Below, one piece after another: positions 1-31,733 of a stretch of 64,000 bases of DNA. The notes beneath the pieces were generated by a model. That model was not told the DNA's origin and searched no databases. It saw only the letters and a program-made list of their open reading frames with translations. Position 1 is the first letter of the stretch. Every line of letters begins with the position of its first letter. This DNA is from Dictyostelium discoideum (lineage: Eukaryota), in NCBI GenBank assembly GCA_000004695.1, contig CM000155.2:2944001-3008000 (forward strand). Direction: 5' to 3'. Position numbers and translations under genes: made by a program.

Positions 1-498
1 ATTATTACTATTGTTATTATTAATTGCATCTCTATTATCTTTATTTATTACTGTATTTGTTATTTTTGATACACAACGAATTGATTCAGTGTATAATGAT
101 TTACCATCTAATTCCAAGATAATTTTAAATAAATTATTTTCATGTTTAGATGATAAAGTTTGGATTCTTGTTTCTACGGTTACTGTTTGATCTTTGATGT
201 AGATATTGTAATCCAATGGACTGGTTTTTAAAGAGTTTACCTTACTTTCCAAATCATTTTCGTATACTAATTTTAGTGAAACTTTATCTTTGGTAAGGTT
301 TTGGAATACACCTCCATTTGATTTATTTAATTTATTTGAATTTAATTTCTTTGGATCGATTACCAAAAGGAATGGAATATTTTTGGTAACAATGTTTACA
401 CTATTATCAGCTTTTAGTGTATCAACTAATGTGACATTAAATTTGGAATTTTGGAATTTTGTTGTTGTTGTAGTTGTTGTTGTTGTTGTTGTTGACAT
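1..498 (-). CDS. Hypothetical Thr/Asn/Lys-rich protein, 5' part (ATG 498..496; continues past the window start)
   Basis: Minus-strand reading frame open from the ATG at 498 to position 1 with no stop (MSTTTTTTTTTKFQNSKFNVTLVDTLKADNSV...). Codon usage is Dictyostelium-like. The + ORF 290..568 in the track is antisense low complexity. Confidence 0.45.
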   Translation of the reverse strand, partial: MSTTTTTTTTTTTKFQNSKFNVTLVDTLKADNSVNIVTKNIPFLLVIDPKKLNSNKLNKSNGGVFQNLTKDKVSLKLVYENDLESKVNSLKTSPLDYNIYIKDQTVTVETRIQTLSSKHENNLFKIILELDGKSLYTESIRCVSKITNTVINKDNRDAINNNNSNN

Positions 499-566
499 TT
501 TATATTTTATTAATATTAATTTATATATATTTTTTTATTATTATTATTATTATAAAATATTAAATT

Positions 567-608
<42 letters not shown>

Positions 609-609
609 A

Positions 610-654
<45 letters not shown>

Positions 655-1489
655 GATTAATAAATTTATTTAATTAAATAATATTGTTGTTTTTAAAAAA
701 ATATTGTTTAAAAATATATATATATATATTTTATTTAAAAAAAGAAAAAAAAAAAAAAACTTTTATAGTAATATTAGTGTTAAGTGATATTATAAAACTA
801 ATGGACAAAATGTTATTTGTTTAATGTTGTGTTTATTGGGGTGTGGAAAAAATTTCAATAAAAAAAAAAAAAAAAATTTATCAGCCAAAAAAAAAAAAAT
901 TAAAAAAAAATTAAAAAAAATTAAAAAAAAATTAAAAAAAATTAGAAAAAATTTTTTGGTTGTTGAATTTTCTATTGTGGAAAAAAAAAAAAAAAAGAAA
1001 GAAAAAACAAAGAAAAAAATGAAAAATTAAAAAATTAAAAAAATAAAAAAATAAAAAAAGAAGATTTGTTAAAACTTAAAAAAATAAAAATAATTTTCTA
1101 AACGATTAAAAAAAAGTGGGAAAAAAGTCAAAAAAAATATATTTTATATATTTAAATATGATGACTTATACAAAATACATGTACAAAAATCTGAAAAAAT
1201 AAAAATATATCTAAATATAATTTATTATTTATTTTTTTTTTTTTTTTATTTATTTTTTTTTTATTTCATTTTTTTTTTGAATTGATTAAACTCTTCTTTA
1301 ACTAATTTAAAAGAGTTTTTTTTTTTTTTTTTTATTTTCGCGTTTAAAATACATGTAATTATTTTTTTTTTTTTTTTTCTTTTTTTTAATTTTTTTTTTT
1401 TTCGCCTTTAAAATTTTTTATTTTTTTTTATAATTTTTTCATTTTTCAATTTTTTTTTTTCATAAACAAACAAATAAACATATAATAAA

Positions 1490-1935
1490 ATGTCAAGTGG
1501 TATTGGTGCTTGGGGTGGATCTGGTACATGTTATCCAATTTTTTCAGATTTTTGTACATGTATTTTTGATAAACCATTAGAATTATGTGAACCATACAGA
1601 AAAGATTATTTAGAATGTCTCCATAATGTTAAAGAAGTATATATCATTATCATCATTATCAACCAATCAATCAACCACTGATAGCAATAAAATTACCATA
1701 AATCAACTTGTGAATTCACCCCCCCAAAAAAAAAAAAAAAAAAAAAAAAAACCCACCATCAACAAAGTGATACTAATTTTTCTTTCTTTTTTTTTTTTCC
1801 CCTTAAATAAAAATATAGTATAAGAGTCAATCATCAGAAAATTACCATAAAGGTGGTGAGGAAAGAATTAACAAAGTTAGAGAAGCAATTAAAAGAGCTC
1901 AAGAATATGATCCAAAAAAAGGAAAATCTGAATAA
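1490..1935 (+). CDS. Small CHCH (twin Cx9C) protein, possibly NDUFS5-like complex I subunit; 2 exons 1490..1636 and 1819..1935
   Basis: Exon 1 ends ...LECLHNVKE with a GTATAT donor. The acceptor is aaatatag. Exon 2 is in frame and ends at TAA 1933-1935. Cys spacing is CEPYRKDYLEC (Cx9C), and YLECLH resembles WIECAH of NDUFS5. Confidence 0.45.
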
Positions 1936-2442
1936 ATTCAATTTTTTTTTTAATAGTAATAAATAATAATAATTAATAACTAATAATAATAATAATAATA
2001 ATATAATTTAGTGATAATACGATAAAACCCAAACAACAAAAAAAAAAAAAAAAAAGAACAAACTAGCATCACCCTTTTTTTTATAGTGCTAGAATATTAC
2101 ATGTAAAAAAAAAAAAGAAAAAAATAATAAAAAAAAATAATAAAAAAAAATATATATAATTTAAAAATAATATACTATTTTAATATAATTAATTTGAATC
2201 AAATTTATGAGAATTTTTGTTAACTTTTATTTATTTATTTATTTACACCAATAATCATAATAACAATAATAATAATAATAATAATAGACCATTTTTGGTT
2301 TTTGTACTTTTATTTATTATATACAATTAAATTCTTTACTTTGTTTTTTTTTTTTTTTTTTCATTATTTTTTTTCTTCTATAGTTATTAATTATGATACA
2401 AGTTAAATATGTGTATATATTTTAATTCTTTTTCACTAAAAA

Positions 2443-2748
2443 TTAGCCAAATGGGATAGTAATTGAAATATCATCACCAAATGCACCCCATTTATTTCTA
2501 TTTACTAAATAAATACCCATCCAACCCATGAAAATGGTTGAATATCCTAAAAATCCAATTAATGAGAATTTTAAATCTAAATAAATATAAAAAAAAAAAA
2601 AAAAAAAAAGATAAATTAGTTAATTAATATTTAAAATTTTTAATTTAATAATAATAATAAAATTATACATACACCATTTTACTTTATCATTCAAAGAATT
2701 TCTATATGGTATAAAATATAAAATGTTAATTAACCAAACCCAGGTAAG
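2443..2748 (-). CDS. 3'-terminal exons of a membrane protein gene (exon ..2748-2673, intron, exon 2576-2443); upstream part lost in the N gap
   Basis: Minus strand reads ...LTWVWLINILYFIPYRNSLNDKVKW, then a GTATGT donor, ~96-bp intron, TTTAG acceptor, then YLKFSLIGFLGYSTIFMGWMGIYLVNRNKWGAFGDDISITIPFG, stop. Hydrophobic helices present. Splice phases are consistent. Confidence 0.4.
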
Positions 2749-2848
2749 NNNNNNNNNNNNNNNNNNNNNNNNNNNNNNNNNNNNNNNNNNNNNNNNNNNN
2801 NNNNNNNNNNNNNNNNNNNNNNNNNNNNNNNNNNNNNNNNNNNNNNNN
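2749..2848. other. Assembly gap (100 N)
   Basis: Run of N. Confidence 1.
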
Positions 2849-3689
2849 CACTCGTTCAGATTTATCAAGAAGAAATCCAAACAATTCTCATGTCCTTGCC
2901 GCAAGATTGGATGACTATGGTAGATACCATTATCAACAAGAACCATTATATCAAGATAAAATGGCTAAAGAAGCCTTCAAATTGGCTAAAGCTGAAAAGA
3001 AGAATGAATACGTTGCCAATAAAGCAGTACTTCAAAAAGAAGGTCTCATTAGAGCTGTTGAAAGAAATGATAAACTTAATAAAACTCAAATTGCACCTGA
3101 AAGACCAATTTTCAAGAATGATACTATGGTTATTGAAGAACCAGTGCTTACAAATACAATTGTTTACGAAACAGTTCCAACTACTTCAACTTCACAAATT
3201 TTAATTCCACAAGAAACAATCATTACTGAAAATAAAACATTTGAACAACCAACTTTAGAGAAACAAACAACTACAACAACCACCACTACTACAACATCAT
3301 CATCATCTGAAGGTAGCTCAAATGTTGCCCCTCCACAAGAAACTTTTGTTCCACAATTAGAAAAGGATGAAGCTCCAATTTATAGAGAAGAAGTTGTTTT
3401 GGTTCCACACATTGAAGAGGATACTTTTGATTCTGGTAATCAACAATTAAGTTATTCTGAAATTACTCAAGTTCCAGTTCAAATGACAAGTAGTGAATTT
3501 GGTGGTGGTGGTGGCAACAATAGTGGTTCTTCAGGTAGAAAAGGTAAAAAAGGTAAAAAACAACAATATCGTAAAGAAATCATTACAAAACAATCAACTG
3601 ATGGTGGTAAATCTTGGACAAATGATTCAAACTTGGCTGGTGATAATGTTGAATTTATTCAAGAACAAACAACAATTAGAAATCAATAA
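2849..3689 (+). CDS. Hypothetical protein, 3' portion (frame open from the gap edge; ORF track 2907..3689 begins with a TTG artefact)
   Basis: Frame is open from 2849 (TRSDLSRRNPNNSHVLAARLDDYGRYHYQQEPLYQDKMAKEAFKLAKAEKK...) to TAA at 3689. There is a Thr-rich tract and a GGGGGNNSGSSGRKGKKGKK tract. No recognisable domain. Confidence 0.5.
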
Positions 3690-4129
3690 ATTATTATTTA
3701 ATAAAAATATTTAATAAAATTTTATTAATATTTTTTTAATTTAATAATTTTTTTATTTATTTTTATCATCTTTATTATTATTAAAAAAAAAAAATATCAA
3801 TAAAATAGTCAAAAGAAAATTGATATTTAAAAAAAATAAAAATAATCATTAATTTATATTATAACGAATTTATTAACTAATATCAATAATTCGTTTTAAT
3901 ATTAAAAATAAAAAATAAAAAAATATAAAAAAAAATTTAATTATTATAATAAAAAAAAAATTAATAAAGCTTGTATAATTTTAATAATTTGTAATTAATT
4001 TATTTATATTTAAAGTAGGTTATTGTTTATATAATTACTAGTTAACGGATATTAATTTTGTTTAATCTATTTGAATCTACTATACTATATCCATTTTGAT
4101 TTCTTATAAATCAAATAAAATAATTACTA

Positions 4130-4796
4130 AAAAAAAAAAGTAAAAAATCAGGTGAAAAAAAAAGAAAAAAAAAAAAAAAACCCATTTTTATCTAACCAAA
4201 ACCATTTCATTACAAGTCAAATTTGATAATCTTTTAAATATGACAATATTATTTTATTTGAAAAAAAAAAAAAAAAAAAAAAAAAATTCACCCAAAATCG
4301 AATTAAAAAAAAAAAAAAAAAAAATTCAAACCAAATACCAAAGATTTCCCACCCCTAATTCTTAAAAAAAAAAAAAAAATTTAAAAAAAATTTTAAAAAT
4401 AAAAAACCCCTTTTAACATAAGGAATTTAAAATATTTAAATAAAAAAAACTTCCCCAAACTTATAACCCCCAATTTGCTCGACAATAATTAATTAATTAA
4501 TTAATTAAAATTTTTTTTTTTAATTTTTTTTTTTTTAATAATTAAAAAATAAAAAAAAAAAAACCCTTTTTTTTTTTTTTTTTTTTTTTTTGAAGGGAAA
4601 AATTAAAAATGAAAATTTAAAAATCCCGGGAAAAAATTTAAAAAAAAAAAAAAAATTTCCTTCCAAAAAAAAAAAATTAAAAATAAAAAATTCTGGGGGG
4701 GGGGAAAAAAAAAAACCCCCAAATTTTAAAAAAAAAAAGGGCCCCAAAATTTTAAAAAAAAAAAAAATTTTTTTTTTTTTTAAAAAAACCATAAAT
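4130..4796. repeat. Homopolymer-rich low-complexity block (A/T/C/G runs) abutting a gap; probable low-quality or unplaced sequence
   Basis: Strings such as cccggg, gggggggg, aaaaacccc that are atypical even for Dictyostelium intergenic DNA. Lies directly 5' of gap 4797-4896 and the TRE ORF. Confidence 0.5.
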
Positions 4797-4896
4797 NNNN
4801 NNNNNNNNNNNNNNNNNNNNNNNNNNNNNNNNNNNNNNNNNNNNNNNNNNNNNNNNNNNNNNNNNNNNNNNNNNNNNNNNNNNNNNNNNNNNNNNN
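4797..4896. other. Assembly gap (100 N)
   Basis: Run of N. Confidence 1.
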
Positions 4897-6768
4897 CAAA
4901 AATTGAAATTAATGGTAGTACTACTATACCCTTTGAGATCAAAAGAGGAGTTAAACAAGGAGATCCACTATCACCCACCCTGTTCGTCCTTGTAATAGAG
5001 GCTTTAGCTAGAAAAATTTTACAAGATGACCGAATTACTGGCCTTCCTCTAAACAACAGCAACCACAGAGAGAAATTCCAAAGCTTTGCAGACGACTCGG
5101 CTTCAATGGTCCCAGACTCTCAACAACTTGAATTAGTACTACAACACTTCAATTCGTTTTGCAAAGCCACTTCCTCAAAACTAAACATCGACAAATCTTC
5201 ATCAATTCTTATAGGCAACCCAGACAATACCAACCAAAGAATTCCAATATCTACAAATCCAGAAAGATACTTGGGATACTTCTTCACAGGCAAAGGGATA
5301 ACAAGAAAAATGCCAGAAATATTAAACACAATAAGATCATCCTTAGTACTATGGAAAACCACTGACTCAACAATCAAAACCAAAACCAACATCCTCAAAG
5401 CATTCGCACTCTCTAAATTAACCTACTATTCATATGTAGAGAAATTTAAGGAAGAGGAATTAAACCAAATCAATAAATTAGTCGAATGGTTTTTATCGGC
5501 ACCAAACAACAAAAATGCTAGTGGATTTCAAGTTATTAATTTAATGAGAACCAAAAGAGCAAGATACCCACTAAAAGTAGGAGGCTGGAACATTTGGAAT
5601 ATAGAATTGAGACAACTGGCGCAGAAACTTTGGATCATAAACCAATTCATCCTAGCACTAGAAACCAAACAAACAAACTCATCTCATTACAAAAGCTGGG
5701 AATATCAGATCCAAAAAAACAAATTCACATCCAGATACCTAAAAGAAAACTTAGACGAATGGAACAAAATAAGAATAAAAAAAGCAATCTTCAACAATAA
5801 TCTCACATCCATAAAAAACGAAAATGGACAACCACTTTCACTGGCAGAATGGTATACCACAATTCAAGACCAAAATCCAACCATCCCTAAAACGGAATTC
5901 CAATCATCTCTAAACTTAAGAGGCTACAGCTATAATCAACTCTTCAACAACATACTGAAGATAAAAGACCATAAAACAAGAGACACAATGTTTAGATTCC
6001 ATGCCAGATGCCTTCCAATAAACTACCTTCACAACAAACAATGCCCACTCTGCAAAGAAGATATGAGCAAAGACCCATACGGTCACCTGTTCTTCTCATG
6101 CAAGAAAACAAAACAATTCATAAAAATAAATAAACTCAAAAATTTCATCTATATTACCACAGGCAAAGGTAAAAACTGGCACCATACAAGAATTAGGCAA
6201 AATAACAATTTCATTAATAGAATAACTCCAAAATTATCACCGACAGCCAAAAAAGATCAAGAAGTGAATGCAGATTACGCCAACCACAGATTCCACAAAG
6301 AATACTTTGAATGGAACTATAAAGCAATAGACTATGATCTAACCAGATCATTCGCATATAGAAACCTAATGGCCCTTATCCTCCACAACATTTGGATTTG
6401 GATTTGCAATCAAATATACAGTGAAGATCCTTTAACAGATGAATCACTATCATACAGCTCCCTTCTAAAGAAATGGCACAAATTGGCCACTCTAGAATAC
6501 ATCAAAAAAGCAAAAGATCTGAAAAACTTATCAGCAAAAGACCATAATAACTTCAAAGATCCTAAGATCCTTCTCACTTCAACGATCAAGCTAAGAAAAA
6601 CAAAAGCTAATTACTATTGTATTCCAGAATCATCTCTCCCAAATATTATATCTTTTGATCAATTCATATGATTAAAATAACCCTTCAGCTTAAATGATAA
6701 GCCTTTAAATAAATATTAAATAAAACTCGTATTAACACAGATGGACATATATCAATCTTGTTAATCCA

Positions 6769-6800
<32 letters not shown>
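4897..6800 (+). mobile_element. Non-LTR (LINE-like, tRNA-gene-associated TRE-type) retrotransposon, 3' portion with ORF2 RT/C-terminal region and poly(A) tail
   Basis: ORF 4897..6671 has RT motifs (GVKQGDPLSPTLF, FADD as the YxDD-type motif), a C-terminal Cys-rich CPLCKEDMSKDPYGHLFFSC motif, and a 3' UTR ending in a 27-nt A run at 6774-6800. The same sequence recurs as a rearranged fragment at 9821-10382. Confidence 0.85.
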
Positions 6801-7995
6801 TTGTATTAATAATTTCCAAGCCCTTAGAGATTTACCAATTTGATTTATTTTAAATGAATTAACAGGAAAGTGAATCGATGAAAACTCTCCAGGTGTTTCA
6901 TTTTGAGAAATCATTTAATTTAAAAAAAAAAAAAAATATAATTGTTGGGCTTGTTTTCATTCTTTTTAAAAATATCATTATTACTAAAATCACCCATAAA
7001 TACACCATATAAACCTTATTTTCTTTTAAATTTATATCGAGTTATCAATAATTGATCATTTTTTTAACGAGATCCATTTAGGTATGTTATTTTTAGAATT
7101 TTAAAAATTATTTTTTTTTAAAAAAAAAAAACCAAAACAATCATAATTTAATATTAAAACTTATAAATAAAAACACTAAAAACACAAAAATTATGAATAA
7201 AAATAAAAATAGAAAAAAACAAATATAGATTTAAAATTCCAGTAACCATGGTAATTTATTAACCCGGATTAAAATATTATAATTGGGGATATTACATTTG
7301 GAAAATCTAAAAATTAATACCATTTTGAAAATTTACAAAAAAAAAAAAATAAAAATAGAATTAATCCCTGGTATTAATAAATAATAAAAAATTAAAAAAT
7401 AAAAATAAAAAATAATATTTTTTTAAAATAATGGGGATCATTATTTTTTTAATAAAAAAAAAGTGATTACCAATTTTAAAGAAAGAAACCAGGTTAAATA
7501 AATAATTAGTTTTTTTATTATCAAAGTTGAAAAATCTAAAATGACATTGAAAAGATATTATGATCTGGCCTATCACTTTTAATAATTTACTAAAATAGAA
7601 GATATTTTTTAACATGCGGCATAGGTTATTATAAAATTACAAAATGTCAGTAGTGGGCACAAAAATGAATAAAATTTAAATAAAATTTAAATAAAATTAA
7701 AATAAAAAAAATTAAAAAAATCTTGAAAAAAAAAAAAAAGATATTTTTCAAAAATTATAGGAATAATGGCTTTTCAAAAATAATTAATATGGTTAAAATA
7801 TCTAATTTTTCATTTTTTTTTTATTTTTTATTTTTTTTTATTTTTATTTTTTTTTTTAGATTAAAAAATATCTGATTTTATTAATTTTGATTATTTTTAT
7901 TTTTATCCTGGTATTTCTTTTTTTTTTAAAATAAAAACAAAATTTTTTTTTTTTTTTATTTTTTAATATTATATTTATTTTTGTATTTGTAAAAA

Positions 7996-9079
7996 ATGAG
8001 ATTATTTCTTTTATTAATTACTTTTATTGCATTATTTGGTGCTATTAATGCATTTTCAGGTGTTGATATTTCACAAGGAAGTTCTGTAGGTGATTTCCAA
8101 TGTATGCTAAATCAAGGTTTTGAATTTGCAATCATTAGGTAATTATACAATTTATTAAAAAAAAATAAAACTTGTTTTAAAATATTTAAATATATTAATT
8201 TATAATTCAAAATTATAGAGGTTATATGGAAACTGGTCAAGTTGATCCAGAAGTTGTAAACAGTATTGCATGTGCACGTGAAGCTGGTGTCGAATATGTT
8301 GATACTTATCTTTTCCCATGTAAGAATGAAATTATTTTAATTTTAAACTTTATTTAAATGTGAATAATAAATTTATTTACAATTATTTTTTTAAAACATT
8401 TTCAGGTTTTAATTGTGGTAACCCACAAGATCAAGGTCCAGCTTTAGTATGTTTTGATTTTTTTATAATAATAATTATTTTATTTAGAAATATATATATA
8501 TTAAAAACCAATTCTAATATATAATTTAAAATTATTAATAGGTTAACTACTTAAGTGGATACAATGCTAACTATGGTATGGTATGGTTAGATATCGAATC
8601 ATCAGATTGGAGTGGTGATCAATCAGTATGTATCAATAATAGTAAACTTTAGAGTCTTTCATTTTTTTATTTAAACTACTAATATTAAAAATTTAATTTA
8701 AATAGGCAAATGTTGCATTTTTTGAAGGCTTAATTTCAGGTTTACAAAGTGTTGGTGCTCATATTGGTGTATACACCTCAGCTTCACAATGGATTCCAAT
8801 CATGGGTGGTTATACTGGTGGTTCCGAATTCCCACTTTGGGTAAGTTGTTTTTTTTTTTTTTTTAATTTTTTATTATTTTATTATAGATTTTATAGTATT
8901 ATTCGATATTAATAAAAACTCTTTCATTCAACAACAACAACAACAATTAGTATGCCAATTGGGATGGAGTACAAAGTTTTGATGATTTTTCAGCATTTGG
9001 TGGTTGGAGCACTCCAGCAATTAAACAATATAATGATGGTGGTAGCAACTGTGGTGTTGGTTATGATTTTAATTGGTGA
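7996..9079 (+). CDS. GH25 (Entamoeba/Chalaropsis-type) lysozyme with signal peptide; 6 exons: 7996..8138, 8219..8319, 8406..8446, 8542..8625, 8706..8840, 8951..9079
   Basis: MRLFLLLITFIALFGAINA signal peptide, then GVDISQGSSVGDFQCMLNQGFEFAIIRGYMETGQVD...VWLDIESSDW...GVYTSASQWIPIMGG...PLWYANWDG...GGWSTPAIKQYN, which fits the GH25 pattern. All junctions are GT..AG. Summed exon length is 633 nt (210 aa + stop) and in frame. Confidence 0.8.
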
Positions 9080-9775
9080 GTATTGAAAAAAAAAAAAAAA
9101 GATAAAAAAAAGATTAAAAATTTAAACAAATACTAACCATTTTATTATTCTAATTTGAAAACCAGGTATCCAAATTAATATTTTAATTTATATTTAATCA
9201 GATTGGTTAAAAATTTAAAATAAATATGTTAAATGGTTTTTATACAAGCATAAATATATTTTTTTATGTTTTAAATATCCTATTTTTAAAAAAAGATAAA
9301 TTGGTGGAATTATTATTGAACTTTTTTTTTTTTGTTGTTGTTGAGTAGTTTATGTTAACCTCATGATCCTTCTTTATATTTGGTGGGATTATAGGTTTAA
9401 TTCTTTTTTTTTTTTTTTTTTTTTTTATATTTGATCATTTTAATAAAAAAAAATTAATGCATTAATCAAATGATTTTTTTTTAAAGTTGATTGCAAATCC
9501 ATATCCATATCTGGTGAAATATCATTACTATCAAGTTTTTATATGAGAAATGTGATAATCTATAGCCTTGTAACACCATATGAAGTGAGGTTTATGAAAT
9601 CTTATATGAATGTAGTCAATGTTGATTTCATGGTCTTTCTTCATATTAGGAGGTATAATTGGTGTGATTTTGTTTGTTGTTTGTTGTTTATGATTGTTCC
9701 GCCTGTTAATTTGAAGATGAATCCTGTTAATTTGGTATTGTTAATATATGATTTGGGAGCACTTGTTCTGAAATA

Positions 9776-9777
<2 letters not shown>

Positions 9778-9823
<46 letters not shown>

Positions 9824-10418
9824 TGGATTAACAAGATTGATATATGTCCATCTGTGTTAATACGAGTTTTATTTAATATTTATTTAAAGGCTTATCATTT
9901 AAGCTGAAGGGTTATTTTAATCATATGAATTGATCAAAAGATATAATATTTGGGAGAGATGATTCTGGAATACAATAGTAATTAGCTGTTGTTTTTCTTA
10001 TCTTGATCGTTGAAGTGAGAAGGATCTTAGGATCTTTGAAGTTATTATGGTCTTTTGCTGATAAGTTTTTCAGATCTTTTGCTTTTTTGATGTATTCTAG
10101 AGTGGCCAATTTGTGCCATTTCTTTAGAAGGGAGCTGTATGATAGTGATTCATCTGTTAAAGGATCTTCACTGTATATTCAGAATTCCAATATCTACAAA
10201 TCCAGAAAGATACTTGGGATACTTCTTCACAGGCAAAGGGATAACAAGAAAAATACCAGAAATATTAAACACAATAAGATCATCCTTAGTACTATGGAAA
10301 ACCACTGACTCAACAATCAAAACCAAAACCAACATCCTCAAAGCATTCGCACTCTCTAAATTAACCTACTATTCATATGTAGTATATTGTATTTCAGAAC
10401 GGAAAAATATAACTTTGC
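9778..10418 (-). mobile_element. Rearranged 5'-truncated TRE retrotransposon fragment (inverted 3' end with poly(A) joined to a forward internal segment), inserted downstream of tRNA-Lys
   Basis: 9778-9818 is a 41-nt T run, which is poly(A) on the minus strand. 9821-10178 is the reverse complement of element positions 6415-6773. 10180-10382 is in forward orientation and matches 5222-5440. 10383-10400 is an inverted copy of the left-flank target GTTCTGAAATACAATATA. The second duplicate copy lacks all of this. Confidence 0.8.
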
Positions 10419-10488
10419 AGGTTAGTTTTCTTAATTTTATTATTTGTATGGTAAAGTCATTTGGGTCCTTTTACAATATCTTCATAGC

Positions 10489-10500
10489 CGGAGTCGAACA
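10489..10500 (-). promoter_or_regulatory. Downstream B-box-like element (ex-B box) of tRNA-Lys copy 1
   Basis: Minus-strand TGTTCGACTCC lies ~35 bp 3' of the tRNA end and matches the GGTTCGANTCC B-box consensus, as described for Dictyostelium tRNA genes. Confidence 0.6.
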
Positions 10501-10532
10501 TGCGATCTCAACTATACTCAGTAAAAATAATT

Positions 10533-10605
10533 CGCCCAACGGGGGGCTCGAACCCCCGACCACCAGATTAAGAGTCTGGCGCTCTACCGACTGAGCTAGC
10601 CGGGC
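10533..10605 (-). tRNA. tRNA-Lys (anticodon CUU)
   Basis: Minus strand reads GCCCGGCTAGCTCAGTCGGTAGAGCGCCAGACTCTTAATCTGGTGGTCGGGGGTTCGAGCCCCCCGTTGGGCG. This gives a cloverleaf with A box TAGCTCAGTCGG, a CTT anticodon loop, B box GGTTCGAGCC, and a T run just 3' of the gene. It is near-identical to metazoan tRNA-Lys-CTT. Confidence 0.92.
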
Positions 10606-11898
10606 ATTTTTATGAATTTTCAATTAAAATACTGGTATACGTAATAAATTTACTCCAATTGAAAAAAGATGAGTTTACAGGTGAAGCAATTTATTTTATC
10701 CAAAAAAAAAAGGTCAAATAATTATCAATTTAATACACAAAAAATAAATAGTTTATTGTTGTCTCTTTCTTTTGAAATTAATAAAATATTTTAATTTAAG
10801 AGTTTTTATTTCAGATTTTTTGTTCAATTGCACAGAACAGAGATTTAAAATTGTGGTGTGGCAAATAAAAAAAAAAATTATGAGAAAATAGATTATAATA
10901 GCTTTTATTAAATTACACTTATTTATACATTGATATTTAAATAGAAAATCGATTTAATTTTAATTTTATGAGAATAATAATTTCAAATAACTAATCCTCC
11001 ATTTGGTTTTTGAAAAACTTCTAAATGTACAGAGTTTGAAGTGGGCTGAGTATTTAAATTTACAACACTTTTTGATTGATCTTTTTTTGTATTGATAAAA
11101 CTTGTTGTTTTAACTGATTTATTTTTTGCCAAACAATCTAACAAATTTTTAAATCAATATGTTAGAAAATAAATAAAATAAATTTTTGAAAAAAATAACT
11201 TAATTAGTTTACACACATACCGTAAATCATTTTTTAATAAATTTTTTAAATAAATAAAAAAATAAATAAATTATATAAATAAAATAAAATATAATAAAAT
11301 AAAATAAATAATTAAAAAACTAGTTTAATAAATAAATATTTTTTAAAAAATAGATTAAAAAAATTGTAAATAAATTTTTAAAAAATGAATAAAAAAAAAA
11401 AACAGAAAATTGAATTTAAATATTTTATTCTTTTATTTTTGTATTTTTTTAATTTTATAATTTTTTTTAATTGTTTATTTTATAAAATAATGAAAATATT
11501 AATTTAATATCCATATTTGTACTTTAAGATTATTATTTATAAATCTTGTGATTTTGTTTATTTAAATAATTATTTCAAAGAATTATAATATGAGTTTTTA
11601 AAATTAAGGCAATTATAGTACACTTTTACATATAATTATACAATAAATATTTTAATTTTTTATTTTAAAAAAAAAAAATATTTAAAAATAAATTAAAAAA
11701 AAAAAATAACCACTCTTACTATTTGTTTTTATTATAATAATAATCGAATTTTATTAATTTTGTTTTTATTTTAATATTTTGCTCTATATTGAATTTCAAA
11801 TTCCATACGTCCTTCATTGTTTTTTTTTTTTTACACAGAATAATAACTGATTAAGATTTTTTTTGTTTATTATTTTTAAAAAAAAAAAAAAGAAACAA

Positions 11899-11998
11899 NN
11901 NNNNNNNNNNNNNNNNNNNNNNNNNNNNNNNNNNNNNNNNNNNNNNNNNNNNNNNNNNNNNNNNNNNNNNNNNNNNNNNNNNNNNNNNNNNNNNNNNN
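11899..11998. other. Assembly gap (100 N) between the two tandem duplicate copies
   Basis: Run of N. Confidence 1.
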
Positions 11999-12043
11999 AT
12001 ATTAATAAAAACTCTTTCATTCAACAACAACAACAACAATTAG

Positions 12044-12172
12044 TATGCCAATTGGGATGGAGTACAAAGTTTTGATGATTTTTCAGCATTTGGTGGTTGG
12101 AGCACTCCAGCAATTAAACAATATAATGATGGTGGTAGCAACTGTGGTGTTGGTTATGATTTTAATTGGTGA
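12044..12172 (+). pseudogene. Duplicated terminal exon (exon 6) of the GH25 lysozyme gene, with no upstream exons in this copy
   Basis: Identical acceptor context and coding sequence YANWDGVQSFDDFSAFGGWSTPAIKQYNDGGSNCGVGYDFNW, then stop. Exons 1-5 are absent before it (the gap precedes it). Confidence 0.6.
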
Positions 12173-12952
12173 GTATTGAAAAAAAAAAAAAAAGATAAAA
12201 AAAAGATTAAAAATTTAAACAAATACTAACCATTTTATTATTCTAATTTGAAAACCAGGTATCCAAATTAATATTTTAATTTATATTTAATCAGATTGGT
12301 TAAAAATTTAAAATAAATATGTTAAATGGTTTTTATACAAGCATAAATATATTTTTTTATGTTTTAAATATCCTATTTTTAAAAAAAGATAAATTGGTGG
12401 AATTATTATTGAACTTTTTTTTTTTTGTTGTTGTTGAGTAGTTTATGTTAACCTCATGATCCTTCTTTATATTTGGTGGGATTATAGGTTTAATTCTTTT
12501 TTTTTTTTTTTTTTTTTTTATATTTGATCATTTTAATAAAAAAAAATTAATGCATTAATCAAATGATTTTTTTTTAAAGTTGATTGCAAATCCATATCCA
12601 TATCTGGTGAAATATCATTACTATCAAGTTTTTATATGAGAAATGTGATAATCTATAGCCTTGTAACACCATATGAAGTGAGGTTTATGAAATCTTATAT
12701 GAATGTAGTCAATGTTGATTTCATGGTCTTTCTTCATATTAGGAGGTATAATTGGTGTGATTTTGTTTGTTGTTTGTTGTTTATGATTGTTCCGCCTGTT
12801 AATTTGAAGATGAATCCTGTTAATTTGGTATTGTTAATATATGATTTGGGAGCACTTGTTCTGAAATACAATATACTTTGCAGGTTAGTTTTCTTAATTT
12901 TATTATTTGTATGGTAAAGTCATTTGGGTCCTTTTACAATATCTTCATAGCC

Positions 12953-12963
12953 GGAGTCGAACA
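12953..12963 (-). promoter_or_regulatory. ex-B box of tRNA-Lys copy 2
   Basis: Same TGTTCGACTCC element as in copy 1. Confidence 0.6.
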
Positions 12964-12995
12964 TGCGATCTCAACTATACTCAGTAAAAATAATT

Positions 12996-13068
12996 CGCCC
13001 AACGGGGGGCTCGAACCCCCGACCACCAGATTAAGAGTCTGGCGCTCTACCGACTGAGCTAGCCGGGC
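12996..13068 (-). tRNA. tRNA-Lys (anticodon CUU), duplicate copy
   Basis: Sequence identical to 10533-10605. Confidence 0.92.
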
Positions 13069-14399
13069 ATTTTTATGAATTTTCAATTAAAATACTGGTA
13101 TACGTAATAAATTTACTCCAATTGAAAAAAGATGAGTTTACAGGTGAAGCAATTTATTTTATCCAAAAAAAAAAGGTCAAATAATTATCAATTTAATACA
13201 CAAAAAATAAATAGTTTATTGTTGTCTCTTTCTTTTGAAATTAATAAAATATTTTAATTTAAGAGTTTTTATTTCAGATTTTTTGTTCAATTGCACAGAA
13301 CAGAGATTTAAAATTGTGGTGTGGCAAATAAAAAAAAAAATTATGAGAAAATAGATTATAATAGCTTTTATTAAATTACACTTATTTATACATTGATATT
13401 TAAATAGAAAATCGATTTAATTTTAATTTTATGAGAATAATAATTTCAAATAACTAATCCTCCATTTGGTTTTTGAAAAACTTCTAAATGTACAGAGTTT
13501 GAAGTGGGCTGAGTATTTAAATTTACAACACTTTTTGATTGATCTTTTTTTGTATTGATAAAACTTGTTGTTTTAACTGATTTATTTTTTGCCAAACAAT
13601 CTAACAAATTTTTAAATCAATATGTTAGAAAATAAATAAAATAAATTTTTGAAAAAAATAACTTAATTAGTTTACACACATACCGTAAATCATTTTTTAA
13701 TAAATTTTTTAAATAAATAAAAAAATAAATAAATTATATAAATAAAATAAAATATAATAAAATAAAATAAATAATTAAAAAACTAGTTTAATAAATAAAT
13801 ATTTTTTAAAAAATAGATTAAAAAAATTGTAAATAAATTTTTAAAAAATGAATAAAAAAAAAAAACAGAAAATTGAATTTAAATATTTTATTCTTTTATT
13901 TTTGTATTTTTTTAATTTTATAATTTTTTTTAATTGTTTATTTTATAAAATAATGAAAATATTAATTTAATATCCATATTTGTACTTTAAGATTATTATT
14001 TATAAATCTTGTGATTTTGTTTATTTAAATAATTATTTCAAAGAATTATAATATGAGTTTTTAAAATTAAGGCAATTATAGTACACTTTTACATATAATT
14101 ATACAATAAATATTTTAATTTTTTATTTTAAAAAAAAAAAATATTTAAAAATAAATTAAAAAAAAAAAATAACCACTCTTACTATTTGTTTTTATTATAA
14201 TAATAATCGAATTTTATTAATTTTGTTTTTATTTTAATATTTTGCTCTATATTGAATTTCAAATTCCATACGTCCTTCATTGTTTTTTTTTTTTTACACA
14301 GAATAATAACTGATTAAGATTTTTTTTGTTTATTATTTTTAAAAAAAAAAAAAAGAAACAAGTGGAGATTAAATATATTTTGTGTATTAACACTTTTAA

Positions 14400-14490
14400 G
14401 TATCATTTTTAAAAAAAAAAAAAAAAAAAAAATTGTAAAAAAAAAAAGAATTTATTTTGTTTAGAAAAACTTTTTTTTGTTTAATTATTA

Positions 14491-14523
<33 letters not shown>

Positions 14524-15521
14524 TTAAATAATAAAAAGTGGTATTTAATAATATAACAATATCAAAAGGGAAAAAAAAAAAGAAAAAAAAAAATAAAAAA
14601 AAAAAAGGAATGACAAAAAAAAAAAAAATTGGTATATTTATTTTGAAAAATTAATTTAAATCTTGCAATTACTTATCTTGATAATCAAATAAAAAAAAAG
14701 AAATTGTACAAATTAATAATGGCAATCTAACTAATAAATAAAATTCCACCCCCCCCCCTCTCTCTCCTTACAAAAGGATGAATCAGGTTGAAGGGGGTAT
14801 TATTTTTATATACATTTTTTTTAACAATCAATGTACATATAAAAAAAAAAAAAAAAATTATTATTTTCATTTTCCAATTCTTAATTTTTTGTATTGAAAC
14901 AAATTAAAAATAAATTTTGAAAAATTGAATTACTGAATTAGCTTACTTTTTTTGGTGTTTACCACAAAAAAAAAAAAAAAAAAAAAAAATGAAAATTAAT
15001 TTTTTTTTTTGAATTTTTTTATATGACAATTATAATAATAAGTATTAATCATGAAAAAAAACACAACCTAAAATTAAAAAGGGGGTTCGGGTTTATTTTC
15101 ACAGCTTGGTACAGATTTAAAAAAAGGAAAATAAAAAAAAAAACAAAATAAAAAACCCCCCCTTCCAAAAAAATATTACCCCCCAAAAAACAACATATTT
15201 AAAAAATTTATGGTTTTAAAAATCATTAATTTTAATAATTTTTTTTTATCCATTTTTTATTAATTTTTTTTTTTAAAAAAAAAAAATATTTTTAAATTCC
15301 CTTTAAACAAGGAATAAAAAATCAAATCAAAAAAAAAAAATTTACCTACAACTTTTTAGGGAAAGTTTTTTTATAGAAATTAAATTTTTATAAAAAAAAA
15401 AAAATTAGGAAAATTAAGAATTTAAAAATAAAATACCATTTCAAAAAAATATTTTTAACTTTTTAATTATAAAAAAATATCAAAAAATGAATTTAATTGG
15501 AAAGTTTAATTACATTTTTTA

Positions 15522-15571
<50 letters not shown>

Positions 15572-15600
15572 ATATACTAACTTTTGTTTTTTAATTTTTT
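14400..15600. repeat. Homopolymer-rich low-complexity block with isolated C/G runs
   Basis: poly(A)/poly(T) runs interspersed with cccccccctctctctcc, gggggttcgggtt and similar. No coding potential. Confidence 0.5.
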
Positions 15601-15995
15601 TTTAAAAAAAAAGACTCTTTCAAAGATCTTAGTTTATCAAACGAAAATAAACAATTTTTAAATGTTAGAAATAATTCAAATAATGGATTTCACAATAATT
15701 TTACTTTAATAAAAAATCAAAACAATTCAGTTATTAGTAATAATCCAGTTATTGTTGTTTCTTTTATAAAATAATATTAAAATCAAGTAAAAAAAAAATA
15801 ATATATATGGAAATAGAAATGATTTTTAAAAAAAAATAATAATAATCAATATATATAGAAATAGAAATAATTAAAAAAAAAAAAAAAAAAAATAATGACA
15901 ATCCGAATCTAAAAAAAAAATGTTGTAAAAATAAAAATTAATTTATTTATTTATTTAAAAAATATAAACTTTTAATTAATTAATTAATTAATTAA

Positions 15996-16783
15996 TTATA
16001 AATATGGTTTTAATAAAATTAAATCTAATTGTGAAATTAAGTTATTTAAATTTTTTGGAGGTATACCTTTAAAATTATAACGAATTAATTTATCTTGATT
16101 TGATTGTAATCTTGATTTTATTCTTTTTACAATTTCTAAATTATGATGAATTGCATTTAAATTAATATCTATTGGATCATTTCTATTGTCTAATAGATAT
16201 AAGAATATTTCATCTCTTTTATGACGCAATGCTTGAATTGGTACTAATGATGAAATTGGATAAATATTCAACTCTGTTAAATATTGAACCAATGCTAAAC
16301 TATCACTTGTTACAGCATTCTCCATAATGAAATTATTATCAATTAATTTATTTAACCCTCCATCTACACCATTTTGATGAATAAATTTCATAAATTCTAA
16401 ATCACCCCTATTAGCAATGAATTCACCAACTAATTTATCATTCCAAAGGAAATTCTCTTTAAAATTATAATAAAGATATTTAAATAATTCAAAATTTTCA
16501 CATGCTAATCTAATACCATATTTATATAAAAAATCATTATTATTATTATTATTATTTGAATTATTACTATTTTTATTTATTGCTGTTGAATTTCTAATAA
16601 TCTTTTTTACAAATTCAAATTCTTTATATTTTAAAATATATTGAAATCCAATTCTAACTTTATCTTTTTCTTTTAAATTTTCTTTTATTCCTTTTTTATA
16701 TAAAAAATTAAAAATAAATAATTTTTTAATATCTTTGTCTTCCAATTCATTTAAATTATTTAAATTTAAAATTTTTAAAGTTG
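15996..16783 (-). CDS. Hypothetical protein with ankyrin-repeat-like segments; N-terminus may lie in the gap 16784-16883
   Basis: ORF 15996..16745, with the frame open up to the gap edge. Motifs GDLEFMKFIHQNGVDGG and ENAVTSDSLALVQYLTE resemble ankyrin repeats. Contains a poly-N tract. Confidence 0.5.
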
Positions 16784-16883
16784 NNNNNNNNNNNNNNNNN
16801 NNNNNNNNNNNNNNNNNNNNNNNNNNNNNNNNNNNNNNNNNNNNNNNNNNNNNNNNNNNNNNNNNNNNNNNNNNNNNNNNNNN
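16784..16883. other. Assembly gap (100 N)
   Basis: Run of N. Confidence 1.
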
Positions 16884-16924
<41 letters not shown>

Positions 16925-17149
16925 TAAATATTTTTTTGGTAAATTAAAAATAAATAAATAAATAAAATAAAAAATATTATTAAAAAAATAAAATATATCC
17001 ATTTATATTATTATTTTTATTTTTAATAAAAGTTTTTTGTTTTTCCAATATTTATTTATTATATTATATTATTATTATTATAAATATTTTTTTATTTTTA
17101 TTATTATTATTAATATTTTTTTATTTTTATAATTTTTATTATTAGGTGG

Positions 17150-17939
17150 TTAATCAAAAGAAACATAATATTTTTTAATTTCATAAGAAATTTCAGTTTC
17201 AGCCAAATAGAAAGGACTTGTTTTCAAATTTTTAAAATATTTTAGAATGATTTGGGTGAATTGTTTATAGCAATTGAATAGTTTATCAAGAATCATTTGA
17301 AAGATTTTCATACCATTTTTAAAGTTTGGAAATTGTTGAGTGACTATTACATTCATTTCTTCGATACCAGATCTCCAATTTTGATAAAATTGTTTCAATA
17401 TTTCTTCAAGTATTTCTTTCTTCAATTGTGGATGGTTAATTTCTTCCAACGTATATAAACCAATCAATGGATACAAATCTCTAACAGTTGTAATAACATT
17501 TTTAAAATATACAAATGAAACCAATTGTTCTAAACAATATTGTTCAGCTTCTTTTTCAAATAATAAAATCCAATAATCTTTATCTTCATTACCGCTACCA
17601 ATAAATTCATTTTCATTATTATTATTATTATCATTATTATTTTCATCATTTTTATTACTATTATTACCATTAATTTTATTATTATTATTATTATTATTTA
17701 CAATATTATTATTACTATTTAATTTATCAGTTAAAATTGTTAAAATTAAATCAAAATTATTTAATCTAAAAATTAATTTTGAAAGATGATTTGATTTTAA
17801 ATCATCAGATAGTCTATTAATTAATTTATACATTTCAACTCTCATTATTGCTAAATTTTCATTAATTATTGAATGTGATTCTTTAATATTAAATAATAAA
17901 TGATCATTATCCGTATTAATTAAATCATTATTATTATTG

Positions 17940-17980
<41 letters not shown>

Positions 17981-19780
17981 ATTATTAAAATTATATAAAA
18001 CTGAAAATGAACCAATTAATTCACTATATCTTCTAACAACATAATGAGGTCTATTTTCTTCAATTGGTGATAAATCTTTAACATTTGCATCTCTAATAGA
18101 TTGAATATTCTCTTCGAATAATATTGTTAATCTTGATAGAGTTGAATTAATAATGAATTGAAATAATCTATCAGTACAATCTGATTTGAATTGAATTTTA
18201 CTTCTATATTTACTAGTGATTGATAATATTAATAACAAAGCCACTATATCATAAGTTGATGCTAAATAACCATTTAAATTCTCCATAAATAATGATTCTG
18301 ATTTACAAAATAAAAAAGTAGAACTATCTTTATTTGATAGGAAATAATCCTTTAGAAACATATTTTCATATGATACTAAATCAATGATAAAGAATAACAA
18401 TGATCTGAATATAACTTCATAGGAATATTTTATAGAGTCAGAGGCAGAGGAAGATTCGAAATTGATAGATTGGGGTTTTAATGGTGGAGTTTCGAGTTCA
18501 TTTAAAATCTGATACCTAGTTTCAATGGTGTAAATGGATGATTTACACTTTAATTTATTACTTTTACTCGAGAAGAATCCCCTGGTTTTACTCTCGTGCA
18601 TACCAATTAAATCATTTCTTGATGTTGGTTCCATTTGAAGTTTCTCCAAGAATGTTATATAACTTCTATAATAGGATGAATAGATTCTTTCAGCAATCTC
18701 TTTATATTGATCGAATAGAATTCTAGCAACACGTCTAGTATGTTTATAGAGGAATATAAATGCTTGTCTGTATAGGGTGAATTCTTGTTGTTTCGATTGC
18801 AACGATTGTATATCCTTGATTTGGTTGAATTGTACCATGAAAAACCTATGAATCTTATCCAAAACCACGTTCAACAGTTTCAGTGTCACCTCTTCAATTT
18901 CACCCGTTGCAAAGACTCCATCGATCTTTTGTGACGATATGTGGCCTATCTTCTTACTGAATATTGAAAGATATTGAAGATACTGATCGTTAACCTCACC
19001 TTGTGTCAATAGGTGTATCAAATCATCCGATATCGAAACCTCCTCTATAATCTTATCCAATCGTTCCACCACCTTCTTCCTATTGACACATTTGGAATTC
19101 TGTGTAATCGATAACTCTTGTAAATTTCTCATTTCTTTTGAAATGTTTGTTAATTCACCTTGAAATTTACTTAACATATCTTCGAAACCACTCAATAGAT
19201 CAGTACTCTCTGTTATGGTTTTATAAAGTATTGCAAATGTTTCCCTCTCATTAACATAATCTGGTATAATATCTTGATAAAGTTCATTCATCTCCTTATC
19301 ACATCTCTCTAACGATTCACCAACTTCTTTTGAAAATTTACTTAAATCAATACCCTTATCCAAACAATTTGCTATAACTTGCTCATCCTTTGCATAGCGT
19401 TCAATTTGATTTTCAAAATCTTCCATACCCTCTCCCATTATATTGATTGTTGTTAAATCTAAATCAAATTTAAATTCCATATTGTCATCTTTTTCAATTT
19501 GTTCTTTATTATTTGTATTGTTACTATTATTTTGATTTTTAGATTTTTTTGAAATTTCTATTGATTGTAAACTATTTGATAATGAATTTGTATCATCATC
19601 ACTTATAAATTCATTATTTGTTGTTACTGCTTCATCTTCTTCGTGATGACGAAATCCTTTACTTGTACCATTTAATTCTTTATCAAATACTTCATCAAGA
19701 TTTGAACCTGTATTTTTATTATTTTTTAAATTATTATTATTATTATTTGTATTATTATTATTATTACTATTATTATTCAT
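17150..19780 (-). CDS. vps52: Vps52 (GARP complex subunit), single exon, 876 aa
   Basis: IYSSYYRSYITFLEKLQMEPTSRNDLIGMHESKTRGFFSSK and the N-terminal coiled-coil region align with metazoan VPS52 (IYLSYYRSYLGRLMKVQ...KKGFFSKPS). Poly-N tracts are typical of Dictyostelium. Confidence 0.85.
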
Positions 19781-20406
19781 ATTTTATATTTTTCACACTG
19801 AGTTGAAAATGTGAATTGCAAAAAATAAAAAAAATAAAAAAAAAAATAAAAAATTAAAAAATAAAAAAATAAAAAAAAAATCCAACAAAATTTTATTTTT
19901 TTATTATTAATAAAATATTTTCTATTTTTTCCATAAATTAATTTAAAATGAAAAAAAGTATTTAAATGAAAAAATAGAAAATATTTAATTAATAATAAAA
20001 AAATTATTCCCCTTACTTTTGGAGTTTATTTTTTTTTTTTTCCTTTTAAAGTAATCTATCAAAAATTTTATTATTAACCATAGTGATTTAAATTTTAAAT
20101 ACAACCTAAACAATATCTCCTAAATGGTGTGTATCTCCTTTCAATTTTTTTTTTTTTTTTTTGTTTATTTAACATTATTTTAAATAATTTCTTTGAATAA
20201 ATTCATCAAAATTTTGTGAGTTTGGAAAAAAAAAAAAAAAAATAAAAATAAAATAAAAAAAAAAAATAAAAAATAAAAAAAAAAGTGTGTTCATAAAATT
20301 TAATTTAAAAAAAAAAAAACAAATTTCAAAAAAAAAAAAAAAAAAAAAAAAACAACACACATAACACAAAAATACAAATAATTTTAAAAATATATATAAT
20401 ATAATA

Positions 20407-21415
20407 ATGAGTGATCATAGTGAAGCCATTGCAACATTTCAATCAATTACAGGTGCATCAAAAGAAGAATCTACATTTTATTTAGAGAGTCATGATTGGG
20501 ATTTAGAAGTAAGATTTTATTATTCTTAATTTTTTATCACTTTTTTATTTTTTTTTTTTTTTTTTATCCTAAATTATTTATTTTTTTTTTTTTTTAAAAA
20601 AATTAAAGAAAGCAGCACAAACTTTTACAACATTACAAGAAGAAGAAAATCAAAGAAATGATCAACCACAAATTGAAGAAGATTATGAAGATGAGGAAGA
20701 GGAAGATGATCATAGAGATCCAATGCCAGCATCAAGACCAGTATATAGTAAACCAGTTGCAAAAACTGTTAGTAAGAAAGCACCAGCAGGTGGTAGAGTA
20801 GGTGGTATTAGAACATTATCAGATTTCAATAATGATGATCATGATGATCATGATCATAGTGATGGTGATGATGATGAAGATGACAGATCTCAACAATATT
20901 TCACTGGTGGTGAAAAGAGTGGTTTGGTGGTTGAAAGTGCACCAAAGAAAGGTAAAAACGGTGGTAGTGGTGATATTGTAAACGATGTATTCGATAGTGC
21001 CAAAAGACATGGTGCTGTTGCATCCAATGAAAAGAAAGTTGAAAAACCAGATTCATTCGATAGTGTTGGTTATCAATTGGGTGCCACTGATCAAGGTAAT
21101 CGTAATGTAAGCAAACCAAAGGAAAAAGATCCAAATTCTCAAGTCGTAGAAGTTAAAGTCACCTTTTGGAATCAAGGTTTCACCATTGATGATGGTCCAC
21201 TTCGTAAGTATGATAATCCAGAGAATAAAGAATTACTCGATGATATTCAAAGGGGTATTGTACCACGTGAACTTCAAAAAAAAGCAACCACTCCAAATGG
21301 TTTATCTGTAACTTTGATAAATAATCATAATCAAGATTATGTTGAACCAGCAAAACCAAAATATGTTGCATTCTCTGGTGGTGGTCAAACTTTAGGTAGT
21401 TCTTCCACCTCAACA

Positions 21416-21447
<32 letters not shown>

Positions 21448-21754: not shown

Positions 21755-21852
21755 ATAATATTAAAATAATATGAAATAAATAAAAATAATAATAATAATG
21801 ATAATGATAATAATTGAATCCAGTTTTTAGTTGTTTGGTAATTATTTGTTTT

Positions 21853-22947: not shown

Positions 22948-22978
<31 letters not shown>

Positions 22979-24721: not shown

Positions 24722-24919
24722 ACAATTCTCCCTTATATAATAAAAAAAAGCTTTTCAAAAAAAAAAAAAAAAAAAAAAACCATATATTCATGTGTATACA
24801 TATTCACAATATTTAATATTTTTATTTTTCAATATTTTATTGATTACCAATTTGTTTTATTTATTTAATTTTAAAAATTTTATTTATTTATTATTATTTA
24901 ATATTGAAAATTTTATTTA

Positions 24920-28338: not shown

Positions 28339-28386
<48 letters not shown>

Positions 28387-28529: not shown

Positions 28530-31733
<3,204 letters not shown>

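Follow-up and report, generated by a model that had tools for sequence, protein, structure and literature searches.

What kind of event leaves behind a retrotransposon fragment whose two parts face in opposite directions, and beside which the target sequence recurs only in inverted form? The question is raised by a TRE3 element in a stretch of Dictyostelium discoideum DNA of 64,000 nucleotides (GenBank assembly GCA_000004695.1, contig CM000155.2, positions 2,944,001 to 3,008,000 of the forward strand), hereafter the window, whose G+C content is ~20% and whose positions 9778–10418 had been described, in an original prediction made from the letters of the DNA, as a TRE fragment inverted in the manner of L1 twin priming, with an inverted 18-bp copy of the flank at its 5′ junction. 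With filled and empty alleles of the site both available at base resolution, the locus provides an unusually clean natural record of target-primed reverse transcription (TPRT) going wrong. We read it, at somewhat better than even confidence, as the scar of one aberrant TRE3 TPRT event, during which the reciprocal DNA end would have been remodelled through a hairpin and would then have primed internally on the element RNA.

The insert and its empty site

First, the insert itself is a TRE3 fragment of 629 bp. Its parts are collected in Table 1 together with the landmarks used throughout; "reference" denotes the coordinates of a neighbouring TRE3 copy, to which 9778–10418 was aligned in both orientations. 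The alignment bears out two claims of the original prediction, namely that the element segments face in opposite directions and that the poly(A) tail has 41 nucleotides (nt), while the segments themselves, both present, need new limits: 6413–6773 instead of 6415–6773, and 5238–5439 instead of 5222–5440. The 3′ part agrees with the reverse complement of the reference over 361 nt with two mismatches (at 9988 and 10001), and the internal part with the reference over 202 nt with a single one (at 10255). At the protein level (tblastn), the 3′ part is 98.8% identical to residues 566–650, and the internal segment 98.5% identical to residues 174–240, of P0001 (DDB_G0285835). Reference positions 5440–6412, 973 nt in all, are missing from the insert, and no microhomology was found when it was looked for at the inversion junction at 10180. 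The 20-mer that spans the 6413/5238 junction is unique among the sequences scanned (the window and six loci); for the chimeric 151-amino-acid open reading frame (ORF) of the filled allele, no record was found when one was sought elsewhere. At the opposite end, the junction of poly(A) and flank is a normal TPRT start from the plus-strand 3′ hydroxyl at 12870 of the empty allele, and the 3′ end at A9777 probably served as the primer of first-strand complementary DNA (cDNA).

Table 1. Coordinates of the insert, its empty site and neighbouring landmarks in the window (UTR, untranslated region)
Feature	Position	Strand	Remarks
Left-flank segment a, GTTCTGAAATACA	9765–9777	+	Same as empty allele 12858–12870
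T41, the 41-nt poly(A) of the element	9778–9818	-	Missing from empty allele
TRE3 3′ end (end of ORF2 and 3′ UTR), sense on minus	9819–10179	-	Reference 6413–6773
Lone untemplated base at inversion junction	10180		C on plus, G on minus; matches neither reference 6412 nor reference 5237
Internal ORF2 segment, sense on plus, hence inverted relative to the 3′ part	10181–10382	+	Reference 5238–5439
Inverted target copy, TATATTGTATTTCAGAAC	10383–10400	+	Exact reverse complement of GTTCTGAAATACAATATA (12858–12875), 18/18
Filler, GGAAA(A)	10401–10406		No template source found
Right-flank restart, ATATA, and extra A at 10412	10407–10412	+	ATATA is 12871–12875; extra A in neither empty allele
Right flank beyond insert		+	AATATA-A-CTTTGCAGG, then on to tRNA-Lys(CTT)
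Junction 20-mers of filled allele			CACTGTATATTCAGAATTCC (6413/5238 junction) and GTAGTATATTGTATTTCAGAACGG
Empty site, GTTCTGAAATACA^ATATAC	12858–12876	+	First-strand nick between 12870 and 12871
Gap of 100 N between two contigs	11899–11998		Overlap of ~2.36 kb (8906–11898 / 11999–14361)
Neighbouring TRE3 copy (reference)	4897–6800	+	ORF2 reverse transcriptase and CCHC region, 3′ UTR, A27 tail
tRNA-Lys(CTT)	10532–10606	-	Targeting landmark
exB-like motif, ATGTTCGACTCCGG	10488–10501	-	Past the tRNA gene; the empty copy has GTTCGA at 12962

Second, the window also holds the site without the insert. When the window is compared with itself, 8906–9777 equals 11999–12870 (100% over 872 bp), and 10406–11898 matches 12870–14361 at 99.93% over 1493 bp with a single gap. 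This identity starts with the first base past the N gap and stops at the base immediately preceding that gap, which is the signature of overlapping contigs, and the contigs 8906–11898 and 11999–14361 were left unmerged because one contains the insert and the other does not. Judging by this pattern, the apparent 2.4-kb tandem duplication is two unmerged contigs that carry the filled and the empty allele of one locus, and the tRNA-Lys genes at 10532 and 12995 (12995–13069) are one gene. A true tandem duplication of the tRNA-Lys unit is ruled out, given that the identity is bounded by the gap and that an independent assembly has the unit in single copy. In the empty allele, the context reads GCACTT GTTCTGAAATACA^ATATA CTTTGCAGG.

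The independent assembly, GCA_054883475.1, was entered through its locus L003, orthologous loci having been found by anchoring on a nearby gene for a GH25 lysozyme. Window segments 4897–9777, 10406–11898 and 11999–16783 map there to one continuous stretch, which carries a single minus-strand tRNA-Lys gene and the exact 27-mer of the empty site at 11770–11796. Its differences from the window are confined to low-complexity A/T runs (15082–15532) and the contig start (4900 and 4919), so limited that L003 is essentially isogenic with the window, and against it the remainder of the insert-bearing contig is error-free. The AX4 data hold the site both filled and empty, and the insertion is recent enough for the two alleles to coexist. 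The corresponding loci of wild strains (L004 and L005), at ~86%, are too diverged to serve as empty sites for either the insert or the neighbouring reference TRE3. Neither the unmerged contig overlap nor the absence of the insert from the overlapping contig and the independent assembly had been seen in the original prediction. What the reference scaffold displays as a tandem duplication, with a duplicated tRNA-Lys gene, is a false one, and an assembly error is thereby exposed.

The inverted target copy and how it may have arisen

How did the target come to lie inverted beside the insert? The 18-mer at 10383–10400, which occurs once in the window, had been described as an inverted rather than a direct copy of the flank. 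The inversion is exact, and comparison of the filled allele with the two empty alleles reveals no direct target-site duplication (TSD); the 13 nt that would have formed one are present solely in inverted form, at the 5′ junction. Its derivation from the flank is correct only in part, as 13 of its 18 nt (GTTCTGAAATACA, 9765–9777) lie in the adjoining left flank whereas the other five (ATATA) match the right flank. The 18-mer is the intact target inverted across the nick, with 13 nt contributed from the left and 5 from the right, and the empty allele holds it contiguously, spanning the insertion point (window 12858–12875; L003 11770–11796).

Chance is ruled out as its origin: among 5000 shuffles and up to 5000 random 30-mers from the window, the longest reverse-complement match reached no more than 12 nt, against 18 observed. 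Ruled out, too, is a similar stretch of the element's own sequence (reference ~6607–6624), which matches at 14 of 18 positions where the target matches at all 18. The copy could gain 2 nt (AG, 10381–10382) as microhomology with the element. To its right, the filler predicted as GGAAAA is present as GGAAA(A), and neither the element nor the DNA within 500 bp of the target contains a match of 8 nt or longer from which it could have been templated. The sole further difference between the alleles is the extra A (10412), which falls precisely on the outer edge of the ATATA arm of 5 nt. Inverted arms of 5–6 nt, TATAT(T) and (A)ATATA, are thus seen at this junction, yet with 5–6 nt of filler at their tip.

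Because the 18-mer spans the nick, it was either copied from, or is itself, minus-strand DNA that was continuous across the plus-strand nick, and this requirement fits the 3′ overhang of the reciprocal end exactly. The geometry points to a remodelled reciprocal DNA end, and not to priming by an ordinary 3′ overhang. The inverted element segment has no separate 3′ end, both segments are absent from the empty allele, and it is therefore no insertion in its own right; its simplest source is a second cDNA that ran from 5439 to 5238 off a second primer. What is joined to the 5′ end of this inverted cDNA, however, is DNA complementary to the 13-nt overhang that would be expected, together with 5 nt of duplex; the overhang is compatible with the role of second primer only if the end was remodelled first. 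Possible pairing at the internal priming site (5438–5439) amounts to 2 nt (CT/AG). Simple fold-back self-priming of the overhang, through AC/GT or AAA/TTT, was worked through by hand and predicts products that differ from the one observed.

The following sequence of events would reconcile these features. The plus strand would be nicked between 12870 and 12871 (ATACA^ATATA), and its 3′ hydroxyl would prime on the poly(A) to give a first cDNA that extends to element position 6413. The minus strand would be cut 13 nt away, a separation equal to the stagger that produces a normal-sized TSD, so as to endow the reciprocal, tRNA-side end with a 3′ overhang, ...TATAT-TGTATTTCAGAAC-3′. Without priming directly, this overhang would be closed, via ~6 nt of filler (GGAAAA), onto its own partner strand at the latter's 5′ end, forming a small hairpin. 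The stem would then be nicked 5 nt in, where the extra A now lies, and the opened hairpin would be filled in to create a new minus-strand 3′ end, ...TTTTCC-GTTCTGAAATACAATATA-3′. This end would prime internally on TRE3 RNA at 5439, assisted by 0–2 nt of microhomology, and a second cDNA would run to 5238, a step equivalent to twin priming from a remodelled end. Finally, the two cDNA ends would be joined with one extra nucleotide, and 5440–6412 lost. To the right of the element the plus strand reads TATAT-TGTATTTCAGAAC-GGAAAA-ATATA(A)CTTTG, exactly the order that a hairpin, a stem nick at 5 nt and fill-in would produce, and the hairpin geometry would explain why the left part measures 13 nt, as a TSD does, why the inverted arms are 5 nt long and why the extra A lies where it does.

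Several considerations weigh against this scheme. The inversion junction has no microhomology, the 973-nt internal gap is larger than is typical of L1 twin priming, and the internal priming site offers no more than 2 nt of microhomology. The 5′ junction can alternatively be parsed to give a 12-nt filler (GGAAAAATATAA), which would remove the argument drawn from the 5-nt arm. The filled allele resides in one scaffold contig, and in neither the overlapping contig nor the independent assembly; it is a single locus and a single instance, known here from assembled sequence alone, and the order of events, the hairpin with its stem nick and fill-in, and the priming are all deduced from the final product. 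APE-type endonucleases are not known either to form or to open hairpins, and host nucleases would be needed.

Could the insert record two intermediates instead of one remodelled end? A template switch between them would invoke a second TPRT intermediate on the sister chromatid, serving as template only, on which the plus strand was nicked 5–7 nt further to the right and which was internally primed at 5439. The polymerase extending the first cDNA would jump, adding 1 nt, onto the 3′ end of the second cDNA and copy it along with 18 nt of its target primer, after which the product would be end-joined to the right flank with the GGAAAA filler. One growing strand would then explain why plus-sense target is attached 5′ of the inverted cDNA, and the single filler nucleotide at 10180 suits such end-to-end template jumping, as does the CT/AG overlap of 2 nt. 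Dictyostelium cells, moreover, are mostly in G2, so that a sister target is usually present. For this proposal to hold, one site must have undergone two events at once and the donor chromatid must then have been cleanly repaired; the proposal also leaves unexplained both the stop exactly 13 nt left of the nick, the size of a TSD, and the extra A at 10412. We regard it as unlikely, although it is the foremost of the alternatives.

A shade less probable is that the filled allele is an artefact of cloning or assembly, that is, a chimeric clone or a mis-join in an old shotgun assembly. Its confinement to one contig that could not be merged with its neighbour would be expected of such an artefact, as would the empty site in a near-isogenic independent assembly, and the scaffold has further faults, including poor contig ends and a differing block order. 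A random chimera, however, is unlikely to have set a complete TRE3 3′ end with A41 cleanly 124 bp past a tRNA gene in the orientation specific to TRE3, and mis-assembly of repeat reads cannot yield an exact 18-nt inverted copy of a unique target together with filler; the rest of the contig, as noted above, agrees with the independent assembly throughout.

More doubtful still is serial RNA jumping from one primer, in which reverse transcription would pass from sense TRE3 RNA (poly(A) to 6413) to an antisense TRE RNA, giving sense 5238–5439, and from there to a local plus-sense transcript, giving the 18-mer, before ligation. Chimeric retrocopies that arise by template switching of the reverse transcriptase are known for L1. 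Antisense TRE RNA is documented for TRE5-A (PMC4559204), and the plus-strand GH25 lysozyme gene upstream (~7993–9080) could read through toward the site. Against this, three templates would be required, two of them unproven RNAs (a TRE3 antisense RNA and a read-through extending ~700 nt past the gene), and the TSD-size 13 nt, the ATATA arms and the extra A would again go unexplained. Least probable is an ordinary 5′-truncated insertion (5238–6773, with a direct TSD) that was later inverted and deleted in part: the region is indeed a pile-up of TRE3-like fragments able to recombine, but the segment order rules out a post-insertion inversion, since inverting the TSD together with 5238–5439 puts the target copy inside, by 6413, and not outside by the flank where it is observed, and flanks 100% and 99.93% identical to the empty allele leave essentially no time for a second event.

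The element, its target and the surrounding scaffold

To which family does the insert belong, and which copy supplied it? The neighbouring reference copy has its 5′ part hidden by a gap (4797–4896), and its remaining ORF contains an RVT_1 domain (Pfam, E = 2e-10) and, in translation, a CPLC...H...C motif (CCHC zinc-knuckle). This ORF matches Dictyostelium reverse transcriptase proteins, among them DDB_G0285835 of D. discoideum AX4 at 99% identity. TRE3 elements insert 40–150 bp downstream of tRNA genes and share the gene's orientation, with a role for exB in targeting (PMC5911963); the targeting rule is given in a further source as well (PMC5006619). The insertion point studied here lies 124 bp downstream of the 3′ end of tRNA-Lys and ~91 bp past the exB-like box, with the poly(A)-bearing part on the tRNA strand. 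All three TRE3 features tested are found in the insert, namely ORF2 homology, a poly(A) tail abutting unique flank, and tRNA position and orientation; its position and orientation, together with the ORF2 homology, identify it as a TRE3 element. The reference copy obeys the same rule, 79 bp downstream of a plus-strand tRNA-Lys gene in L003, and so does a TRE3 fragment at 41552–42124, ~83 bp downstream of tRNA-Lys(CTT) 41395–41469 (+) and in the same orientation. The latter fragment shows ~77% amino-acid identity to TRE3 ORF2 and is cut by a gap (42171–42270).

Three differences separate the insert from the neighbouring copy. At the amino-acid level, two of them are shared with other TRE3 ORF2 proteins: P0002 has both, P0001 has one. 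The source was therefore probably another family member, and the copy at 4897–6800 is unlikely to have supplied the RNA. P0002 (DDB_G0274837) itself bears an internal ORF2 deletion, residues ~215–440 of the reference being missing, and a TRE3 copy at locus L006 (10246–14813) is split by a 1.5-kb insertion. Further 5′-inverted TRE3 copies were sought among L003, L006 and window 41552–42124 and none was found, in a sample far too small to gauge their frequency.

The target has a history of its own. Flanking positions 9267–9775 and 12577–12933 on the minus strand contain old, degenerate TRE3-like ORF2 stretches (48–64% amino-acid identity) in the orientation of the tRNA gene, and the target site falls in a remnant whose DNA identity to reference 6585–6651 is 72%. 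At the nick on the primed strand, the octamer AATACA^AT is common to both TRE3 insertions whose first-strand nick is readable (window 9770–9777 / 12863–12873, and 6801–6810 with L003 5770–5785). The octamer may hint at a preference of the TRE3 endonuclease or of priming, although with n = 2 it could be due to chance.

In the vicinity, the GH25 lysozyme gene used as anchor is a multi-exon gene on the plus strand that corresponds to AX4 Q54BQ8 / XP_629111, "Probable GH family 25 lysozyme 4", and ends ~700 bp from the insertion site. Around the gaps 16784–16883 and 4797–4896, scaffold order differs from that of GCA_054883475.1 (loci L001 and L003). There, window 16884–29796 is found at contig positions 85337–98233 and window 4897–16783 at 111080–119867, the two blocks being in opposite order and ~12.8 kb apart, and window 1–4796 does not adjoin the TRE3 copy. 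The scaffold is either misordered or truly rearranged. The contig end that precedes the gap, window 4500–4796, looks like the tail of a poor-quality read with stuttered homopolymers (AAAACCCTTTT...GGGGGGGGGG). A 249-amino-acid ORF beside a gap (15996–16745, minus strand) has no homologue at E <= 1e-20 in a database of 5.8 billion proteins and may represent a pseudogene or an unannotated fragment of a gene.

Comparison with known systems

Inversion at the 5′ end is explained in L1 by twin priming, in the model of Ostertag and Kazazian 2001 (described in PMC3024322). The TRE3 insert resembles such cases in that the first nick is occupied by a sense 3′ segment with poly(A), the 5′ side carries a more upstream part of the same element in inverted orientation, the sequence between the two is lost, and two 3′ ends on one RNA are the simplest source of inverted cDNA. 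It departs from them in several respects. Twin priming is expected to leave a direct TSD, and none surrounds this insert; its inversion junctions carry a small deletion or duplication, usually with microhomology, in contrast to the 973-nt gap and 1-nt filler found here; and the primer of the inverted cDNA is the complement of the overhang that should have served. The element, too, is of another kind, a TRE3 targeted to tRNA genes in an amoebozoan. As the inversion is present but the direct TSD and the small-indel or microhomology junction are not, the insert is best called twin-priming-like and not a textbook case. Of the twin-priming signature originally proposed, a two-primer origin survives as the best explanation of the inverted segment.

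L1 insertions have been reported with inverted, or inverted and duplicated, genomic DNA at the reciprocal end, with overlaps of 13, 4 and 15 bp that resemble TSDs, and in one case with genomic DNA and L1 inverted together (bioRxiv 10.1101/2024.12.14.628481). Common to those cases and the present one are inverted target DNA at the junction without poly(A) (here 10383–10400), a TSD-like overlap with the primary breakpoint (here 13 nt, 12858–12870), and recourse in the explanation to a small hairpin that uses short homology; remodelling of this kind has been proposed for L1. The scale differs, as only 18 nt are inverted here, compared with 917 bp in one L1 case and a largest unit, of genomic DNA plus L1, of 3,275 bp. 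The TRE3 event additionally combines the inverted target with an inverted element segment that was apparently primed from the remodelled end, and it differs in host, in element family and in being a natural event preserved in an assembly, as opposed to one in a clone with induced L1 or a tumour. On those features that can be tested by sequence, the insert fits the class of L1 reciprocal-end inversions.

Within its own family, the insert has much that is canonical (PMC5911963, PMC5006619), including ORF2, poly(A), a position 40–150 bp past a tRNA gene beyond the B/exB box in the same orientation, a truncated 5′ end, and additional nucleotides at the 5′ junction. For TRE5-A, non-templated nucleotides and target-site irregularities are typical of 5′ junctions (PMC5391098, PMC3159450). 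Canonical TRE3 copies, however, are collinear and bounded by a direct TSD (at least 7–8 bp, ATTGTAT, for the neighbour at 4897–6800), unlike the insert with its inverted 5′ segment and inverted target copy. Off-center opening of hairpins is familiar from V(D)J coding ends and from hAT excision footprints, where it produces palindromic P-nucleotide additions. By analogy, the short palindromic arm (TATAT...ATATA) beside the break with filler at its tip may be viewed in the same light; the analogy implies no hairpin chemistry by a recombinase or transposase, and the hairpin would instead form at a retrotransposon break through folding back and ligation, or through synthesis.

How new, then, is this event? 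A search of the full-text literature, whose coverage excludes key older TRE papers, retrieved no paper on twin priming in Dictyostelium TREs, in line with the original claim that the structure is undescribed there. That novelty is narrow, comparable L1 events having been published: host and element are new in this instance, the mechanism is not. It is improbable, in our estimation, that it harbors a step undocumented for any non-long-terminal-repeat element, be it a hairpin-inverted end that still primes reverse transcription or sister-chromatid intermediates joined by template jumping in a mostly-G2 organism. Mobility experiments in the TRE literature covered concern TRE5-A only. The insert hints that TRE3 was active in laboratory AX4, and if either the remodelled-end priming or the sister-chromatid account is true, the insert would constitute direct evidence of TRE3 mobility in the culture from which the AX4 reference genome was derived. 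More broadly, the insert adds an amoeban element targeted to tRNA genes to human L1, for which 5′ inversion and reciprocal-end inversion have been documented to date, and this suggests that such outcomes are general to TPRT and host end-processing.

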